Of a DNA stretch of 11,217 nt, positions 553 through 6,572 are shown piece by piece. This DNA is from Candidatus Parcubacteria bacterium. GTDB taxonomy: Bacteria; Patescibacteriota; Patescibacteriia; UBA1558; GWA2-36-10. The notes under the pieces were generated by a model that ran no database searches, was not told where the DNA came from, and was given only the letters and a program-made list of their open reading frames with translations. How positions within the stretch are numbered: position 1 is the stretch's first letter; each line of letters starts with the position of its first letter. Position numbers and translations under genes: made by a program. The stretch spans positions 1 to 11,217 of the forward strand of contig JABHIT010000090.1 of the NCBI GenBank assembly GCA_018670855.1, in the 5' to 3' direction.

Positions 553-2331
553 ATGGAAATAAGAAATATAGCTATTATAGCTCACGTTGATCATGGCAAG
601 ACTGCTTTGACCGACGCAATACTCAAACAAACTGGTATGGTATCAGACGAAAGTGCTACCATGGACTCAAACACGCTTGAAAAAGAGCGTGGTATTACTA
701 TATATTCAAAAAATGCCTCTGTTGATTACAAAGACACAAAGATCAATATAGTAGATACTCCAGGGCATGCTGATTTTGGATCAGAAGTAGAGCGAGTACT
801 CCGCTCTATCGATAGTGTCCTCCTTGTGGTAGATGCCCAAGAAGGTCCAATGCCTCAGACTAGATTTGTTTTGAAAAAATCTCTAGAGCTAGGCCTCAAG
901 CCAATTGTAATTTTGAATAAAATAGACAAGCCGGCCGCCAATCCAAACAAAGCCCACGAACAAGTCTTTGAGCTTTTTATGGACCTCGGTGCTACAGATG
1001 AGCAACTAGATTTTACTACTGTCTATGCTATCGCCAAAAACGGTACAGCCAAAAGATATCTAACAGACGAAGACAAGGACATCTTCCCATTACTCGATAC
1101 AATCCTAGAAAAAGTACCTGTCGCCAAGTCAGATGTAGAAGCGCCATTGCGTTGTCAGGTTTTCAACCTTGCCTATGACAACTTCCTTGGACGTATGGCC
1201 ATCGGTCGTATCTATCAAGGTAGTCTCAAAACTGGCTCAAAGCTTGTAGTCAAAAAGATGGATGGTACAGATGGCTCTGGTCGTATAGCCAAGATGTTTA
1301 CTTTTCATGGACTAGAAAGAAAAGAAACCGAAGAAGCTGTAGCTGGAGATATTGTGATGATTGCTGGATTCCCTGATATTGATATTGGAGAAACTCTGTG
1401 TGTCACTCCCGAACAAGAGGCTTTACCTGCTATCACAGTAGATGAGCCTACTATCTCGTTGGACTTCTTGGTAAACAACTCTCCTCTAGCTGGACGTGAA
1501 GGCAAATATGTCACAAGCAAACAAATCAAAGAAAGACTAGAAAAAGAACTAGAGGTCAATGTCGGAATGAAGATAGATTTTACTGGAGAATTTTTCAAAG
1601 TATATAGTCGTGGTGAATTGCACGCCGCAATATTGATCGAACAGATGCGTCGTGAAGGCTACGAGCTACAAGTATCTCAGCCAAAGGTAATCATCGAAGA
1701 AAGAGAAGGCAAAAAGTTTGAGCCTTTTGAAGAAGTGACTATCGATGTACCAGAAGTGAGCTCAGGTATCGTCATGGAAAAAATGGGCAAACGAAAAGGT
1801 ATCGTCACCTCTATGACTAGTGAAAATGCTCAAATGCGTATAGTGTTTGAAATACCTACTCGTGGTCTACTTGGCTACAGAGGTGAGTTTACTGTAGATA
1901 CTCGTGGTGAAGGTATCCTCTGCGCACACTTTTTGGACTATCGTCCATATACAGGTGAAATCAAAAAGCGCAATGTCGGCTCTATGATCTCCATGGCAAA
2001 CGGCAAGGCTCTAGGATTTTCACTGTTCAACCTCCAAGATCGCGGTGATTTATATATCGGACCAAATGTAGAAGTCTACGAAGGTATGGTAGTCGGCAAT
2101 ACTGCCAAAGGATTTGATATGGTAGTCAATCCAATCAAAGGAAAGCAACTGAGTAATATGCGTAGCTCTGGAGCTGATGAAGCTATCACTCTCACTCCTC
2201 CTACGATTCTGAATATTGAGACAGGGCTGGAGATAATCTCTGAAGATGAATATCTAGAAATCACTCCTGACAATGTCCGTCTCCGCAAACAAGGTCTGAC
2301 AGAAAACGATAGAAAACAAATGCAAAAATAA
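553..2331 (+). CDS. typA: Translational GTPase TypA/BipA, a ribosome-associated EF-G/LepA-like GTPase
   Basis: 592 aa. The N-terminus is [17 protein letters not shown] (G1 AHVDHGKT). DTPGHADF is G3. NKIDK is G4. Overall length and domain order (GTPase, beta-barrel, C-terminal BipA domain) match BipA. Confidence 0.93.
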
Positions 2332-2428: not shown

Positions 2429-2860
2429 ATGCTTATTTTATCATTACTACCTATTGTCCTAGCATTATCAACATTGGTGTTTACTTCTTATTATCTTTTT
2501 AAAAATAAAAAGAAAGAAAATTCTATTGTCCAGGGGATCTTTGGTAAATTTTTCTATTACACCTTTTTTATAATAAACTTATTCCATATATTATCTGTTG
2601 TTAGACTATTTATAGAGTGTGGGTATGGCTCAAGAAGAATGTCTCTGGCCTCTACATTGAGAACCGCTTTTCCAATACTAAAAGAAATTAATTGTGACGG
2701 AAACATAGGCATATCTATATATTATGTTCTTATACTAATAATGTCTATACTATTTAATGTTCTGGTTCTTATGGCTAAAAAATATAACTCAAAAGCTGTA
2801 TTTATCCTAGGAATAATATTGGCTCTCGCTCCCGTTGTTTTATATTTAATTTTTTTATAA
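2429..2860 (+). CDS. Small integral membrane protein, about 4 TM helices, function unknown
   Basis: The 143-aa ORF is dominated by hydrophobic segments: LILSLLPIVLALSTLVFTSYYLF, FFYYTFFIINLFHILSVV, ISIYYVLILIMSILFNVLVLMA and AVFILGIILALAPVVLYLIFL. It has AT-rich host-like composition, its own promoter and terminator, and no recognisable family. Confidence 0.55.
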   Translation: MLILSLLPIVLALSTLVFTSYYLFKNKKKENSIVQGIFGKFFYYTFFIINLFHILSVVRLFIECGYGSRRMSLASTLRTAFPILKEINCDGNIGISIYYVLILIMSILFNVLVLMAKKYNSKAVFILGIILALAPVVLYLIFL

Positions 2861-2869
2861 TAATATATT

Positions 2870-2900
2870 AAAAAGGCCACCCAAATGGGTGGTTTTTTGT
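2870..2900. terminator. Bidirectional rho-independent terminator
   Basis: AAAAA GGCCACCC aaat GGGTGGTT TTTTGTTT. A GC stem is flanked by an A-run and a T-run. Its 3' half (GGTGGTTTTTTGTTT) is identical to the typA terminator. Confidence 0.75.
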
Positions 2901-2903
2901 TTA

Positions 2904-2934
2904 CCCTGTTAGAACTAAAATTTCTAATAGGGTT
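2904..2934. repeat. Palindromic element copy 1: CCCTGTTAGAA-ctaaaat-TTCTAATAGGG followed by TTTT
   Basis: 11-bp inverted repeat with one G.U. It is the left bracket of GC-rich patch A. A near-identical copy lies at 3908-3933. Confidence 0.6.
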
Positions 2935-2937
2935 TTC

Positions 2938-2966
2938 CCAGAAAATGAGCCGACCGTAGTCGGCTC
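2938..2966 (-). terminator. Intrinsic terminator for the minus-strand zinc-ribbon gene
   Basis: On the minus strand: GAGCCGAC tacg GTCGGCTC then AUUUUCU. It lies immediately after the hairpin GGTCTC ccta GAGACC, which contains the TAG stop. Confidence 0.45.
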
Positions 2967-2975
2967 AAGTGGTCT

Positions 2976-3218
2976 CTAGGGAGACCGATCAAAAAGCTTC
3001 TGGCAATTTGGGCATTGCAAGGGCCACTCTTTGATAGCTTGTCCGTTGTCTTGTCGCCAATTTAGCTCGACGTGACATCTTGGACAATGAGATTGGGAGT
3101 ACGTGGCATGTCTAGATGAGGAATACCCACACCTATCACAGCCCGTATACTTGGAGACAAGGACCCTGTCACATCCAGAGCAACAAAGAATCGGCTCGGC
3201 CAAACACAAGTGAGACAT
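2976..3218 (-). CDS. Small zinc-ribbon protein, 80 aa with four CxxC motifs, function unknown
   Basis: ATG at 3218..3216 is preceded by AAGGAG (3230..3225) with a 6-nt spacer. The protein is MSHLCLAEPILCCSGCDRVLVSKYTGCDRCGYSSSRHATYSQSHCPRCHVELNWRQDNGQAIKEWPLQCPNCQKLFDRSP. Its CxxC motifs are at residues 13-16, 27-30, 45-48 and 69-72. The track ORF 2976..3251 uses a TTG inside the predicted 5' UTR. A consensus promoter lies upstream and a terminator downstream. Confidence 0.5.
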   Translation of the reverse strand: MSHLCLAEPILCCSGCDRVLVSKYTGCDRCGYSSSRHATYSQSHCPRCHVELNWRQDNGQAIKEWPLQCPNCQKLFDRSP

Positions 3219-3280
3219 GTCTTTCTCCTTTTTTGGATAAAAAAAGAACAAGGTGTGCCCACCTCGTTTCCGGGAGTCTA

Positions 3281-3309
3281 ATTATATCATTATCAGAAAG
3301 AGTGTCAAA
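3281..3309 (-). promoter_or_regulatory. Sigma70 promoter for the zinc-ribbon gene: TTGACA (3309..3304), 17 bp, TATAAT (3286..3281)
   Basis: Both hexamers are exact consensus at optimal spacing. The TSS is about 3274, giving a 5' UTR of about 56 nt. Confidence 0.5.
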
Positions 3310-3319
3310 TTTATTTATA

Positions 3320-3349
3320 TTGACATACCTACATTATACATGATATAAA
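3320..3349 (+). promoter_or_regulatory. Sigma70 promoter with extended -10 for the 147-aa gene: TTGACA (3320-3325), 18 bp, TG-a-TATAAA (3341-3349)
   Basis: Exact -35. The -10 is TATAAA with the TGn extension. It sits back-to-back with the minus promoter, making a divergent promoter region. Confidence 0.4.
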
Positions 3350-3402
3350 CAATTGTTAGATCATTCCATAACAATAATAATCCTTTTTCCTGGAGGCAAA
3401 AA

Positions 3403-3844
3403 GATGAGTAGACTCAGAGTGTACCCAGAGACCCCCTTTGATCGCGATCAAGTCAATTCCCACGGACAAGCTAGCTACATGATATTTCGTAAGCATGATT
3501 TTCCTACAAATTTTTATGATGAGCGTGATGAGCTAATCAAGGCAGACAGCGATCGTCTCTTGCAATTAGAAAATGCTAATTTTCGAGCTCAGCTAGAAAA
3601 ACACATCGGTTCTGGAGAGATGGCTCTGCCTGGATTTTTTGAACAAGCTAGTGATGAGCAAATTATGGCTTTCCTCAAAGATGCCTTGCAAGCTGATGCA
3701 AAAATTAAGTGGACTGGCTTTCGTATTACAGTTAGTGTTCACAGAGCACATGGTTATATTTTTTTCCACATGACACTCTTTGCCAAACACCCCGATAGCT
3801 CCACAGAGCTGTGCTCAGGCATACCTTGCAGATTATATTTGTGA
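3403..3844 (+). CDS. Hypothetical protein, 147 aa, moderately acidic, no recognised family
   Basis: ATG at 3403 is preceded by GGAGG (3391-3395) with a 7-nt spacer. The track ORF 3353..3844 starts upstream at an ATG with no SD. The protein is MSRLRVYPETPFDRDQVNSHGQASYMIFRKHDF...WTGFRITVSVHRAHGYIFFHMTLFAKHPD.... GC content is elevated relative to the backbone. A strong terminator follows. Confidence 0.55.
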
Positions 3845-3854
3845 CCTTTTATGT

Positions 3855-3905
3855 GGTCTGGAATTCTAGTAGTACAATACTAGGATTCCAGACCTTTTTT
3901 ATTTT
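3855..3905 (+). terminator. Strong rho-independent terminator
   Basis: 17-bp stem GGTCTGGAATTCTAGTA / TACTAGGATTCCAGACC (one G.U), loop GTACAA, then TTTTTTATTTT. Confidence 0.85.
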
Positions 3906-3907
3906 GT

Positions 3908-3933
3908 CCCGTTAGAAAAAATTTTCTAACGGG
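3908..3933. repeat. Palindromic element copy 2: CCCGTTAGAAAAAA-TTTTCTAACGGG followed by TTTT
   Basis: Near-perfect palindrome sharing the CCC-GTTAGAA / TTCTAAC-GGG arms with copy 1 (2904-2934). It is the right bracket of patch A. Confidence 0.6.
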
Positions 3934-3974
3934 ATTTTGACTTTATGATGATAAAATGAGAGAATTTGTTTATT

Positions 3975-5207
3975 ATGATATATGATTTGATAGTAATAGG
4001 TGGCGGACCAGCTGGTATCATGGCCGCAGGACAAGCAGCATCCAAAGGTGCCAAAGTTTTGCTTTTGGAAAAAAATAATCGACTAGGTATAAAGCTAGTG
4101 ATTACTGGCAAAGGTAGGTGCAATATCACCAATGCTGAGTTTGATACAAAAAACTTGGTAGAAAAGTTTGGCAAAAAAGGACGCTTTCTTTTTTATGCTT
4201 TGAGCACTTATACAAACAAAGATATTATTGATTTTTTTGAAAGCCGAAAACTGCCCACCAAAGTAGAAAGAGGCAATCGTGTTTTTCCGGTCAGTGATTC
4301 ATCTCTTGATGTCTTGGATATCCTCACAGACTATTTGGCAAAAAACAAAGTAGAAGTCAGAAAAAACATCCAAGTCAAATCTATCGTCACCAAAGACAAA
4401 GAAATAGAAAAAATAGTTTTACAAGACAAGACCGAGCTAAAAGCCAAAAAATACCTCATCGCCACTGGAGGCAAATCCTACCCTATGACTGGCTCTAGCG
4501 GAGATGGCTACAAGTGGCTCCAAAAAATGGGACACACCATAGTAGATACGATCCCCAGCCTGACTCCCCTGTTTATCAAAGAATCTTTTATCAAAGAGCT
4601 AGAGGGCCTGAGCCTCAAAAACGTAAGTATCAATATTTATCAAAACAACAAAAAGATAGATTCGCGTTTTGGTGAAGCTTTGTTTACTGCCAATGGCTTG
4701 AGTGGCCCGATCATACTCGATATGAGTAAAAATATAGGTATAGCTCTCAAAAATGGCCCCGTAAAACTATCCATTGATTACAAACCGAGTCTAGACTTCA
4801 AGACTTTGGACAAACGTGTTCAGGGTGATTTTGAAAAAACAGCCAATAAACAATTCAAGAACAGCCTCGGCGATTTATTGCCCCGCAAACTGATTCCTTT
4901 GATTATAGAACTTTCTGATATTGATCCTGACAAAAAAACTGGCGACATCAACAAAGAAGAAAGAAAAAAACTTTTGCATTTACTCAAAAACTTTGAACTA
5001 AATATCAAATCTTTACACGGCTTTAACAAAGCTATTGTCACAGCCGGTGGAGTCCACCTCAAAGAAGTAGACCCCAAAACTATGCAATCCAAAATCATAA
5101 AAAATCTCTACCTAGCTGGAGAGGTTTTGGATCTAGACGGTCCGACCGGTGGCTACAACCTACAATCATGTTGGAGTACAGGATATGTAGCTGGCTCAAA
5201 TATATAA
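3975..5207 (+). CDS. HI0933/YhiN-family FAD-dependent flavoprotein (BaiN-like NAD(P)/FAD-binding oxidoreductase)
   Basis: N-terminus MIYDLIVIGGGPAGIMAAGQAA is a GxGxxG FAD-binding Rossmann motif. ITGKGRCNITN and the C-terminal VTAGGV...GEVLDLDGPTGGYNLQSCWSTGYVAG are typical of the HI0933 family. The track start 3966 is a TTG. The ATG at 3975 gives the canonical N-terminus. No SD. Confidence 0.85.
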   Translation: MIYDLIVIGGGPAGIMAAGQAASKGAKVLLLEKNNRLGIKLVITGKGRCNITNAEFDTKNLVEKFGKKGRFLFYALSTYTNKDIIDFFESRKLPTKVERGNRVFPVSDSSLDVLDILTDYLAKNKVEVRKNIQVKSIVTKDKEIEKIVLQDKTELKAKKYLIATGGKSYPMTGSSGDGYKWLQKMGHTIVDTIPSLTPLFIKESFIKELEGLSLKNVSINIYQNNKKIDSRFGEALFTANGLSGPIILDMSKNIGIALKNGPVKLSIDYKPSLDFKTLDKRVQGDFEKTANKQFKNSLGDLLPRKLIPLIIELSDIDPDKKTGDINKEERKKLLHLLKNFELNIKSLHGFNKAIVTAGGVHLKEVDPKTMQSKIIKNLYLAGEVLDLDGPTGGYNLQSCWSTGYVAGSNI

Positions 5208-5227
5208 TTTTATTTAAACAAAATATT

Positions 5228-6019
5228 ATGCAAAAAACAATATTTATTACTGGCTCTGGTAGTGGCTTTGGCTATGATACTGCCGTAGCTCTAGCTCGAC
5301 GTGGCCACAAAGTGATTGCTACTACTCATACTACAGACTCTGCCAATGAGCTCAACTCTTTTGCCAAAAAAAATAATCTAAACATAGAATCATTCAAACT
5401 AGATGTCACCGTACCAGAAGACAGACAAAAAATACTAAAGCATGACATAGACGTCTTACTCAACAATGCGGGCACTGGTCAATCTGGTTCGTTGGCCGAA
5501 ATACCTCTGGACAAAATCCGACATGACTTTGAGGTCAATGTCTTTGGCTCTATCGCTCTAGCTCAGCTGGCATTACAAAAAATGATGCCTCGAGATAGCG
5601 GGACTGTGATTTTTGTCAGCTCTCTAGCTGGTAGAGTGCCTATGCCATTTTTGAGTTCATACTCTATGACCAAGTTTGCTTTGTCTGGTGGTATCGATGC
5701 TATGCGTAGAGAGATAAAAAAAATCACCAAAAATGTCCACGTAGCTTTGATAGAGCCAGGTGCCTATCATACTGGATTCAACCAAAAAAATATCGCCAAA
5801 AAATATACTTGGATGGACGAGAAATCATATTTTTGGAAAATAAAAGATGATCTCAAAATAGAAGAAGAAAAATATTTCAAAATGATGGAGCTCAAATCTA
5901 CAAAGAGCATGGTCACTCAAATAGTCAAAGCTTGCGAAGCCAGTAGACCAAAGCTAAGGTACACCGCTCCGTGGTGGCAGGCTGTCGGCGTACAAGTGAT
6001 GAGAATATTTGGAAAATAA
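5228..6019 (+). CDS. Short-chain dehydrogenase/reductase (SDR) family oxidoreductase
   Basis: MQKTIFITGSGSGFGYDTAVALARRGHKV is the TGxxxGxG cofactor motif. NNAG is present. The SDR catalytic region has S (VSSLAG) and YxxxK (YSMTK). The track ORF 5168 starts earlier. ATG 5228 gives the standard SDR N-terminus. No SD. Confidence 0.85.
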   Translation: MQKTIFITGSGSGFGYDTAVALARRGHKVIATTHTTDSANELNSFAKKNNLNIESFKLDVTVPEDRQKILKHDIDVLLNNAGTGQSGSLAEIPLDKIRHDFEVNVFGSIALAQLALQKMMPRDSGTVIFVSSLAGRVPMPFLSSYSMTKFALSGGIDAMRREIKKITKNVHVALIEPGAYHTGFNQKNIAKKYTWMDEKSYFWKIKDDLKIEEEKYFKMMELKSTKSMVTQIVKACEASRPKLRYTAPWWQAVGVQVMRIFGK

Positions 6020-6551: not shown

Positions 6552-6572
6552 ATTTTATACAAAAATAATAAA

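Follow-up and report, generated by a model that had tools for sequence, protein, structure and literature searches.

The two palindromes P1 and P2, located within 11,217 nucleotides (nt) of contig JABHIT010000090.1 from Candidatus Parcubacteria bacterium (assembly GCA_018670855.1; this whole stretch is hereafter called the window), are probably copies of a mobile palindromic element and not the boundaries of a gene cassette. In the first-pass annotation they had been read as paired sites bracketing a divergent pair of genes, encoding a Zn-ribbon-like protein of 80 amino acids (aa) and a protein of 146 aa, and cassette boundaries, operator sites and second hairpins of tandem terminators had been offered as explanations. 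A defined unit with inverted ends, a 4-nt duplication of a loosely palindromic target, polymorphism between strains, many further copies elsewhere, size variants, nesting of copies and selection on the reading frame together argue for a non-autonomous mobile element, and there is good reason to regard P1 and P2 as two independent insertions of one ultra-small non-autonomous family. Its most likely identity is that of an undescribed ultra-small element which resembles MITEs (miniature transposable elements with inverted repeats) or the Rickettsia palindromic elements (RPEs).

The two palindromes of the window

Both palindromes exist as annotated, as seen from the sequence and from a covariance model, with the corrections that P1 ends at 2932 instead of 2934 and that one of its arms carries a G.T mismatch. 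Their arms, which had been described as shared, are related but not identical, as P1 possesses one extra T/A per arm compared with P2; the arm variant of P1 (CCCTGTTAGA...TCTAACAGGG) recurs in other genomes (L075 and L030). The bare arm 10-mer, allowing for up to two mismatches, occurs at 4 sites of the window where 7.8 are expected, and as it is not enriched the significance of the palindromes cannot be established from the window alone. Derived exclusively from copies of other genomes (71 in number), a covariance model identified P2 with 39 bits (E=5e-7) and P1 with 27 bits (E=3.5e-4), while nothing else in the window scored significantly. When folded as single-stranded DNA, P2 reached -11.8 kcal/mol (z=-6.0) and P1 -7.4 kcal/mol (z=-3.7). 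The features of the two copies and of their immediate context are as follows.

2875-2902, plus strand: intrinsic terminator of the 143-aa gene (hairpin 2877-2892), context and not element; P1 lies inside its T tail
2899-2935: P1 with its inferred insertion footprint, a 33-nt insertion; GTTT at 2899-2902 is repeated at 2932-2935
2904-2932: P1, a 29-nt palindromic copy of a variant subfamily, CCCTGTTAGAA-ctaaaat-TTCTAATAGGG, one arm G.T mismatch
2371-2936: strain-variable 566-nt segment comprising the 143-aa gene, its terminator and P1; absent from the strain contigs L012 and L006
3855-3900, plus strand: intrinsic terminator of the 146-aa gene (hairpin 3855-3894), context; P2 lies just past its T tail
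3901-3939: P2 insertion including the direct repeat on its two sides, ATTTTG (3901-3906 and 3934-3939)
3908-3933: P2, a 26-nt perfect palindromic core, CCCGTTAGAAAAAATTTTCTAACGGG

Both copies come after gene ends, and the annotation was right in placing each of them behind a hairpin of the intrinsic terminator type (2877-2892 and 3855-3894) and ahead of a run of T.

Insertion polymorphism among near-identical strains

Near-identical metagenome contigs were retrieved by exact look-up of the window proteins, and three haplotypes of the locus were identified: (i) the window type, which carries the 143-aa gene, P1 and P2, (ii) that of L012, which has kept P2 and is without the 143-aa gene and P1, and (iii) that of L006, which is without the 143-aa gene, P1 and P2. 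The Zn-ribbon and the 146-aa genes are kept in all three. Besides L012, another 11 contigs of the locus carry P2 (L001, L002, L004, L005, L007-L011, L014), the same locus is identical in 13 contigs coming from JGI, ENA and Logan, and strains with and without P2 are 97-100% identical. A residue-by-residue alignment of L006 (TTTTTTATTTTGACTTT) with the window revealed a clean 33-nt gap at P2 (e.g., 3907-3939): where the window reads TTTTTT-ATTTTG-TCCCGTTAGAAAAAATTTTCTAACGGG-ATTTTG-ACTTT, L006 reads TTTTTT-ATTTTG-ACTTT, that is, L006 is without exactly P2 and one copy of ATTTTG. P2 is either an insertion bounded by its duplicated target or the subject of an equally precise loss. The duplication is readable as the 4-nt TTTG, compatible with the target consensus YNNR of the family described below, and it is this duplicated target that makes up the T run following P2.

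The situation at P1 is more involved, as the haplotypes without P1 also lack the 143-aa gene, so that the empty site of P1 is only deduced. The 566-nt segment has GTTTT at both edges and lies between two related terminators (repeat D8, at 2327-2370 and 2859-2902), and in L012 and L006 position 2370 is joined directly to 2937 across the GTTTT microhomology; the terminator repeats could have mediated its deletion. The footprint of P1 was read against the junction TTTTTTGTTTT|CCCAG of L012 and L006, its boundaries being ambiguous within the T run. Both window copies fit a total of 33 nt for element plus duplication. As a separate observation, the deletion stops at the right-hand edge of P1, and an element-associated deletion is possible.

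These haplotypes bear directly on the idea that the palindromes bound a cassette made up of the Zn-ribbon and 146-aa genes or serve as its sites of recombination (as attC-like or pdif-like sites or as MITE ends). In favour of this idea, the palindromes flank the gene pair, their arms are related and the strain-variable segment ends at P1. The gene pair is nonetheless carried by L012 without P1 and by L006 without either palindrome, which is what the annotation had itself named as the observation that would refute it. Each palindrome moreover has a flanking duplication of its own, and the bracketed interval, which had been called GC-rich, has a GC content of 0.416 as compared with 0.417 for the BipA gene and 0.404 for the whole window. 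The search for further copies that had been proposed yielded pairs that enclose ordinary housekeeping genes instead of cassettes (pyruvate kinase, PGI, FBPase, DnaB, L25 and PBP in other genomes), along with single copies inside open reading frames (ORFs); paired copies around genes are common elsewhere and incidental. Neither does an attC-like nature agree with copies inside ORFs and with a perfect 29-nt stem that, unlike attC, has no extrahelical bases, and a protein family scan found no integrase in the window, as had been stated from the outset. Taken together, a cassette boundary is highly improbable. What stands of the proposed likeness to MITE ends is the miniature mobile element, but not the end of a larger cassette, since each palindrome is a complete element.

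Size and distribution of the family

One genome per prokaryotic species (596 Gb) was scanned for the pattern CCCGTTAGAA-N2-9-TTCTAACGGG with exact arms, and at least 120 stretches matched, as opposed to about 4 expected by chance according to our own estimate for 20 fixed bases in 596 Gb. The statistics on flanks, ORFs and core length given below refer to the 122 copies among the matches listed. The hosts among these matches belong almost entirely to uncultured lineages and comprise many groups of Patescibacteria (the candidate phyla radiation, CPR), Omnitrophota, Nitrospirota/Thermodesulfovibrionia, Planctomycetia, Desulfobacterota and a few others. A contig of an Aenigmatarchaeota metagenome-assembled genome (MAG; L027) carries three copies within 6.4 kb (2532-2560, 3113-3143 and 3346-3374), and unless this contig is mis-binned the family crosses the divide between bacteria and archaea.

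A fixed 26-nt pattern, CCCGTTAGAAAANNTTTTCTAACGGG, was found at 33 loci of the JGI metagenomes, one of which is the window locus; some of the others come from the very samples in which the window organism occurs, and two copies lie together on a single 4-kb contig. By means of the covariance model about 20 additional diverged copies were identified in 710 kb of flanking DNA. No copy was found in a plasmid collection from cultured bacteria, and viral contigs gave 8 matches only, several of which resemble plain terminators. Neither the sequence of the element nor any description of it for these phyla was found in the searchable literature.

That all matches come from metagenome assemblies and that the palindrome is perfect might raise the suspicion of an adapter, a linker or an assembly-generated palindrome. 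The loops vary, however, compensatory changes occur, the flanks are locus-specific duplications, and within conserved genes the reading frame stays intact; numerous independent studies and assemblers have yielded copies, with the window locus identical in its 13 contigs. The probability of such an artefact is next to nil.

Anatomy of the element

The canonical element is 29 nt long, C-CCCGTTAGAA-N7-TTCTAACGGG-G, and forms a 13-bp stem with a 3-nt loop. Its core is most commonly 27 nt long (71 of the 122 copies), and one more pair (C-G, less often T-A) extends this core to the 29-nt hairpin. The stem is a perfect one of 13 bp, 97.7% of the cells being paired. Terminal inverted repeats are present, the ends reading CCCCGTTAGAA(A/G) and (T/C)TTCTAACGGGG; 10 nt of each end are fixed by the search pattern, and complementarity extends through the next two positions. 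With the 13 pairs numbered from the outer C-G pair, so that pairs 12 and 13 adjoin the loop, pair 12 is of the Watson-Crick type in 65 of 71 copies (44.5 expected), being A-T or G-C, hence of two types, and pair 13 in 58 of 71 (22.4 expected), with all four pair types occurring. The central three bases do not pair above chance.

The six bases that flank the element on either side follow the consensus G-Y-N-N-R-C. Compared as direct repeats, flank positions 2 to 5 agree in 85, 77, 68 and 80 of the 122 copies, as against about 54, 39, 38 and 54 with shuffled partners, and the middle dinucleotide is identical in 63 copies where 18 are expected. Two other readings of the flanks were rejected: as inverted repeats, which would have made a longer palindrome, they agree at chance level, and a 6-nt duplication fails as positions 1 and 6 are without partner-specific signal. 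All 35 perfect 4-nt duplications are of the form YNNR. The target-site duplication is of a constant 4 nt, and the insertion amounts to 29 + 4 = 33 nt, i.e., 11 codons. In the 35 copies with perfect duplications (L015-L175) an asymmetry of the flanking G and C was seen that is unexpected for a palindrome in arbitrary orientation.

Relatives of 35-130 nt were identified which share termini and duplications with the canonical element and have unrelated interiors; in these longer relatives the ends match for 12-16 nt around a non-palindromic interior. Nested and tandem arrangements of relatives occur as well.

Copies inside genes

Two of the three reading frames of the element are open in either orientation, the third one containing TAG and TAA stops. 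Although ORFs of at least 200 codons (stop-to-stop) cover 75% of the fetched DNA, no more than 36 of the 122 copies fall within them (p=1e-25), and from this under-representation it follows that insertions into genes are selected against. Among the copies that do lie within such ORFs, 34 of 36 have the 27-nt core, which is the frame-preserving length, as compared to 37 of 86 elsewhere (Fisher p=5e-8). The in-ORF copies read as PVR(N/K/S)xxSNG or as PLExxFLTG. Inspection of the translated ORFs identified as host proteins the large subunit of carbamoyl-phosphate synthase (CPS; CarB), SMC, an ArsA-like ATPase, a UvrD/AddA-like helicase, MiaB and a solute-binding protein. For CarB alone a comparison with structures was made: the CarB of L065, when set against solved CPS/CarB structures, has an 11-residue insertion exactly at the element (PVRSGASNGVS). 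The same carB gene, from a Saccharibacteria MAG, holds a second, diverged copy, CCCATTAGACAGCAAAAAGCGTCTAACGGGG, at 5576-5605, which is read as ...KKRLTGQA..., the first being located at 4923-4949.

The in-gene copies also bear on whether the palindromes are ordinary or auxiliary intrinsic terminators that evolved in place. Both window copies follow terminators and precede T runs, and P2 is terminator-like in a consensus scan (13 pairs, 5 of them G-C, then TTTGACTT). Against this stand the 36 copies inside long ORFs, the recurrence of the same 20 arm bases in at least 120 unrelated genome stretches, the polymorphism between strains and the 4-nt flanking duplications, which are not a terminator trait; the T run behind P2 is duplicated target, and the A/T-rich stem of P1 has no more than three G-C pairs at either end. 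An origin as terminators is very unlikely, and the proposed second hairpin of tandem terminators is likewise contradicted by the copies inside ORFs. A weak incidental effect of P1 and P2 on termination, or of P2 on the promoter of the adjacent HI0933-like gene, may exist.

Operator sites for a dimeric regulator conserved across phyla, similar to CIRCE, were also considered, given the 10-N6/7-10 dyad symmetry, the strong sequence conservation and the fact that P2 abuts the -35 hexamer of the HI0933-like gene. This reading is contradicted by copies in the coding regions of unrelated genes and by nested and tandem copies, and equally by the target duplications and by presence or absence between near-identical strains. 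The position relative to promoters is inconsistent, no consistent regulon was seen, and none of the neighbour genes is a regulator gene linked to the copies. Operators can be given hardly any credence.

Possible routes of mobilisation

For the mobile element that P1 and P2 in our opinion represent, mobility in trans would be required, i.e., an enzyme encoded elsewhere is inferred to recognise the conserved terminal 10-13 bp and to introduce staggered cuts of 4 bp into the target. In the simplest model, a transposase of the DDE type would use as its substrate a pair of terminal inverted repeats that abut each other. Conserved ends and a stagger of 4 bp are traces that a transposase active in trans would leave. 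P1 and P2 would have landed in T-rich spacers just downstream of terminators of a marine CPR genome, where insertions would be harmless and YNNR targets plentiful. Within the window the element would have no cassette-boundary role and would at most provide a second hairpin after a terminator.

The mobilising enzyme was searched for in about 1.1 Mb of flanking DNA. Neither an autonomous copy nor a recurrent transposase gene was found there, and almost every exact half-site has its partner within 300 nt. Pairs of ends 0.4-7 kb apart with matching duplications were followed up and proved to be fortuitous, arising from small copies which have the frequent TTTA or TAAA duplications in common; the ORFs enclosed by such pairs are housekeeping genes. 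Clustering of the neighbour genes by all-against-all BLAST yielded histidine kinases, M23 peptidases, ABC ATPases, IF2 and the like. A Pfam search of 116 ORFs from the copy-richest loci identified no transposase among the recurrent families, no RAYT-like gene was seen among the top families of these 116 ORFs or among the recurrent clusters of the 8-kb flanks, and no reverse transcriptase or HUH gene is prominent among the neighbour genes.

Several points weigh against a mobile element moved in this way. Besides the missing transposase and autonomous copy in the approximately 1.1 Mb of flanks, and the want of convincing end pairs 0.4-7 kb apart, the polymorphism of P2 could reflect precise loss instead of gain, and the empty site of P1 is deduced, the JGI metagenomes having yielded no allele in which the 143-aa gene is present and P1 absent. 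P1 (29 nt) and P2 (26 nt) both deviate from the canonical 27-nt core, and the window of 11 kb holds two copies only. Exact 10-nt arms across phyla are unusual for MITEs derived from insertion sequences (IS), and the target is asymmetric, with G before the left duplication in 26 of 35 and C after the right one in only 11 of 35 copies. Finally, a 29-bp duplex is too short for both ends to be engaged at a 4-bp stagger, which renders a classical DDE mechanism sterically awkward.

In view of the short duplex, the covarying stem and the boundaries at the stem base, a folded single-strand intermediate (single-stranded DNA or RNA) is a serious rival. The family would be the same one, its tiny size and covarying stem suggesting that the folded hairpin may be the real substrate, and a non-DDE enzyme would process it, the base of the stem setting the boundaries; candidates would be an HUH/Y1-like transposase, a hairpin-recognising recombinase, or a reverse transcriptase together with a dimeric nicking endonuclease. 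This hairpin route is in line with the covariation of pairs 12 and 13 through several Watson-Crick types around a free 3-nt centre and with element ends that fall at the stem base; 29 bp would further be too short for double-strand synapsis of both ends, the ends of the longer relatives match for 12-16 nt around a non-palindromic interior, and no IS with these ends was found in the flanks. On the other hand, known HUH enzymes of the IS200-IS605 type make no duplication and use a fixed target, whereas a variable 4-nt YNNR is duplicated here; the neighbour genes, as stated, feature no prominent reverse transcriptase or HUH gene, and a single protein that binds the two ends in diverged subfamilies would likewise lead one to expect covariation between them. 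Overall we consider the hairpin route possible but rather unlikely, and within the mobile reading a classical transposase was judged roughly twice as probable.

A more far-reaching proposal, which we put forward tentatively and regard as doubtful on present evidence, would make the family span both prokaryotic domains and include the smallest known transposable elements (29 nt plus a 4-nt duplication). At 11 codons, and free of stops in two frames on both strands, they would be fit for essential genes, and they would be moved either via the hairpin by an enzyme class new to transposition or by a so far unrecognised transposase that has passed horizontally between CPR, DPANN, Omnitrophota and neighbours of theirs.

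Comparison with known systems

The closest parallel in lifestyle is provided by the RPEs (Ogata et al. 2000, 2002), which are about 100-150 bp long and occur in Rickettsia (PMC10969869). Like these, the element is selfish palindromic DNA that resides in frame in unrelated protein genes as well as between genes, adds a tolerated peptide and encodes no transposase. At 29 nt (33 with the duplication) it is about a quarter of the size of an RPE and has a clear 4-nt target duplication, and its hosts (CPR, Omnitrophota, Nitrospirota, Planctomycetia, Desulfobacterota and a DPANN archaeon) set it apart from the RPE description. As size and host range lie outside the limits of the RPEs, the element works like an RPE without being a member.

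Prokaryotic MITEs are of about 100 bp or more, e.g., Correia elements of 104-157, RUP of 107 and ERIC of 127 bp (PMC10969869, PMC3184786). With them the element shares terminal inverted repeats, a duplication of fixed length, a non-coding and multi-copy nature, size variants with the same ends, nesting and polymorphism between related genomes. It differs in that its inverted repeats are abutted around 3 nt and its ends are conserved across phyla, and a parent IS with these ends was found neither in the approximately 1.1 Mb of flanks nor in plasmids.

Repetitive extragenic palindromic (REP) sequences and the REPINs composed of them are likewise very small, hairpin-forming repeats for which a single-copy enzyme acting in trans was proposed and whose hairpin structure matters. 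REPs have a GTAG head and are not known to generate a target duplication. The present element, in contrast, has a 4-nt duplication and no GTAG, and no RAYT-like neighbour was seen in the 8-kb flanks. REPs are 21-65 bp long (PMC3184786), and their mobilisation in trans was proposed to depend on RAYT transposases (PMC3116915). By definition they are extragenic and lie near a RAYT gene, whereas 30% of the copies considered here are located in long ORFs.

Mobile-looking repeats of less than 30 nt have a further counterpart in the small dispersed repeats (SDRs) of Nostoc punctiforme, the likeness ending at a different sequence and a cyanobacterial host. SDRs (Elhai et al. 2008) reportedly measure 21-27 nt, some of them forming hairpins, and insert into one another by a mechanism that is not known; reportedly they are mainly non-coding and are without a defined 4-nt duplication or a frame-preserving design. 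The SDRs of this organism are named in PMC3116915.

An attC site is an imperfect palindrome recognised as a folded strand, and GTTAGAA and TTCTAAC of the element resemble its core sites. The attC core sites read GTTRRRY and RYYYAAC. In the element the word order is inverted, the stem is perfect and has no extrahelical bases, and the length is 29 nt as compared to roughly 57-141 nt; its copies do not form cassette arrays, there is no intI in the vicinity, and some of them are located within ORFs. Loose look-alikes are the IS1380 family, with ends beginning with CC(C) and 4-5-bp duplications, and the eukaryotic piggyBac, with 4-bp duplications, the end CCCTAGAAAG and the target TTAA. The piggyBac end loosely resembles CCCGTTAGAAAG and TTAA fits YNNR, which may be chance; the duplications found here are degenerate YNNR, and no transposase of either type was found next to any copy. 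With PARCEL the element has in common coding DNA of dyad symmetry and a horizontal spread among unrelated microbes, but PARCEL consists of tandem 25-residue repeat domains in dedicated ORFs and not of single 11-codon insertions with duplications.

Genes and signals of the surrounding window

The remaining features of the window are genes and one promoter element.

553-2331, plus strand: BipA
2429-2860, plus strand: 143-aa ORFan
2976-3218, minus strand: 80-aa gene with four CxxC motifs (Zn-ribbon-like), between both copies and outside the element
3404-3844, plus strand: 146-aa gene, function not assigned, between both copies and outside the element
3937-3942, plus strand: -35 hexamer TTGACT of the HI0933-like gene, with P2 at its upstream edge
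3966-5207, plus strand: HI0933-like flavoprotein
5168-6019, plus strand: short-chain dehydrogenase
6629-9502, minus strand: 957-aa vault-protein-like gene
9735-11168, minus strand: 477-aa membrane glycosyltransferase-like gene

The P2 insertion is flush with the -35 hexamer of the HI0933-like gene (promoter 3937-3965, plus strand) and replaces A/T-rich upstream DNA. The only compositional outlier near the palindromes is the AT-rich 143-aa gene, with a GC content of 0.278; it is an ORFan whose sole database match is a Candidatus Parcubacteria protein. The 143-aa, 80-aa and 146-aa proteins gave no match to Pfam, NCBIfam or PHROGs except for a weak zinc-ribbon one, namely that of the 80-aa protein to DZR. 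The 80-aa ORF is not annotated by the gene callers of public collections, and the promoter of this Zn-ribbon gene (3281-3308, minus strand) has a perfect 12/12 sigma-70 consensus and an extended -10 (TG). No tRNA or tmRNA targets were found in the window. Over its whole length no Rfam 15 family reached the gathering score, and between 2800 and 4000 only sub-threshold, terminator-like matches were obtained. A bidirectional terminator at 6570-6599, AAACCCCGTCCAATAAATTGGACGGGGTTT, has its CCCCGT...ACGGGG ends in common with the element and was scored by the family model with 14 bits (E=0.39), which leaves it as a distant relative or a coincidence.

Further observations concern the more distant genes. 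The HI0933-like and short-chain dehydrogenase ORFs overlap as listed by 40 nt (5168-5207), and public calls place the start of the dehydrogenase either at the overlap (283 aa) or later (263 aa, L011). The 957-aa ORF shows the Pfam shoulder domain of the Major Vault Protein and Vault_3 repeat domains at a GC content of 0.50 compared with 0.40 for the window; a horizontal acquisition of this vault-protein-like gene by a Parcubacteria genome is possible, and L014 holds a 947-aa version. Upstream of BipA, according to the gene list of a 283,695-bp contig of JGI 3300072015, a restriction-modification and defence cluster adjoins the window, comprising MethyltransfD12 (Dam-like), GmrSD, DpnII, an N6_N4 methyltransferase and a T5orf172/MUG113 protein.

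Implications

With these findings a false lead is removed, as there is no gene cassette at the locus. In its place stands an element whose build is neutral to the reading frame and which is unusual both in its small size and in how widely it is shared. As a widespread 33-bp insertion it will be met by annotators of CPR, DPANN and Omnitrophota genomes in the form of puzzling 11-residue inserts (PVRNxISNG, PLExxFLTG) within conserved proteins, and it is also a source of spurious terminators and of strain-level insertions and deletions. For essential enzymes the copies constitute a natural data set of surface positions that tolerate an insert of 11 residues. Mechanistically, the question is posed of how a 29-bp element with a 4-bp duplication moves, and the family might serve as a marker for tracing gene flow that connects episymbiotic lineages with other inhabitants of the same groundwater and sediments.

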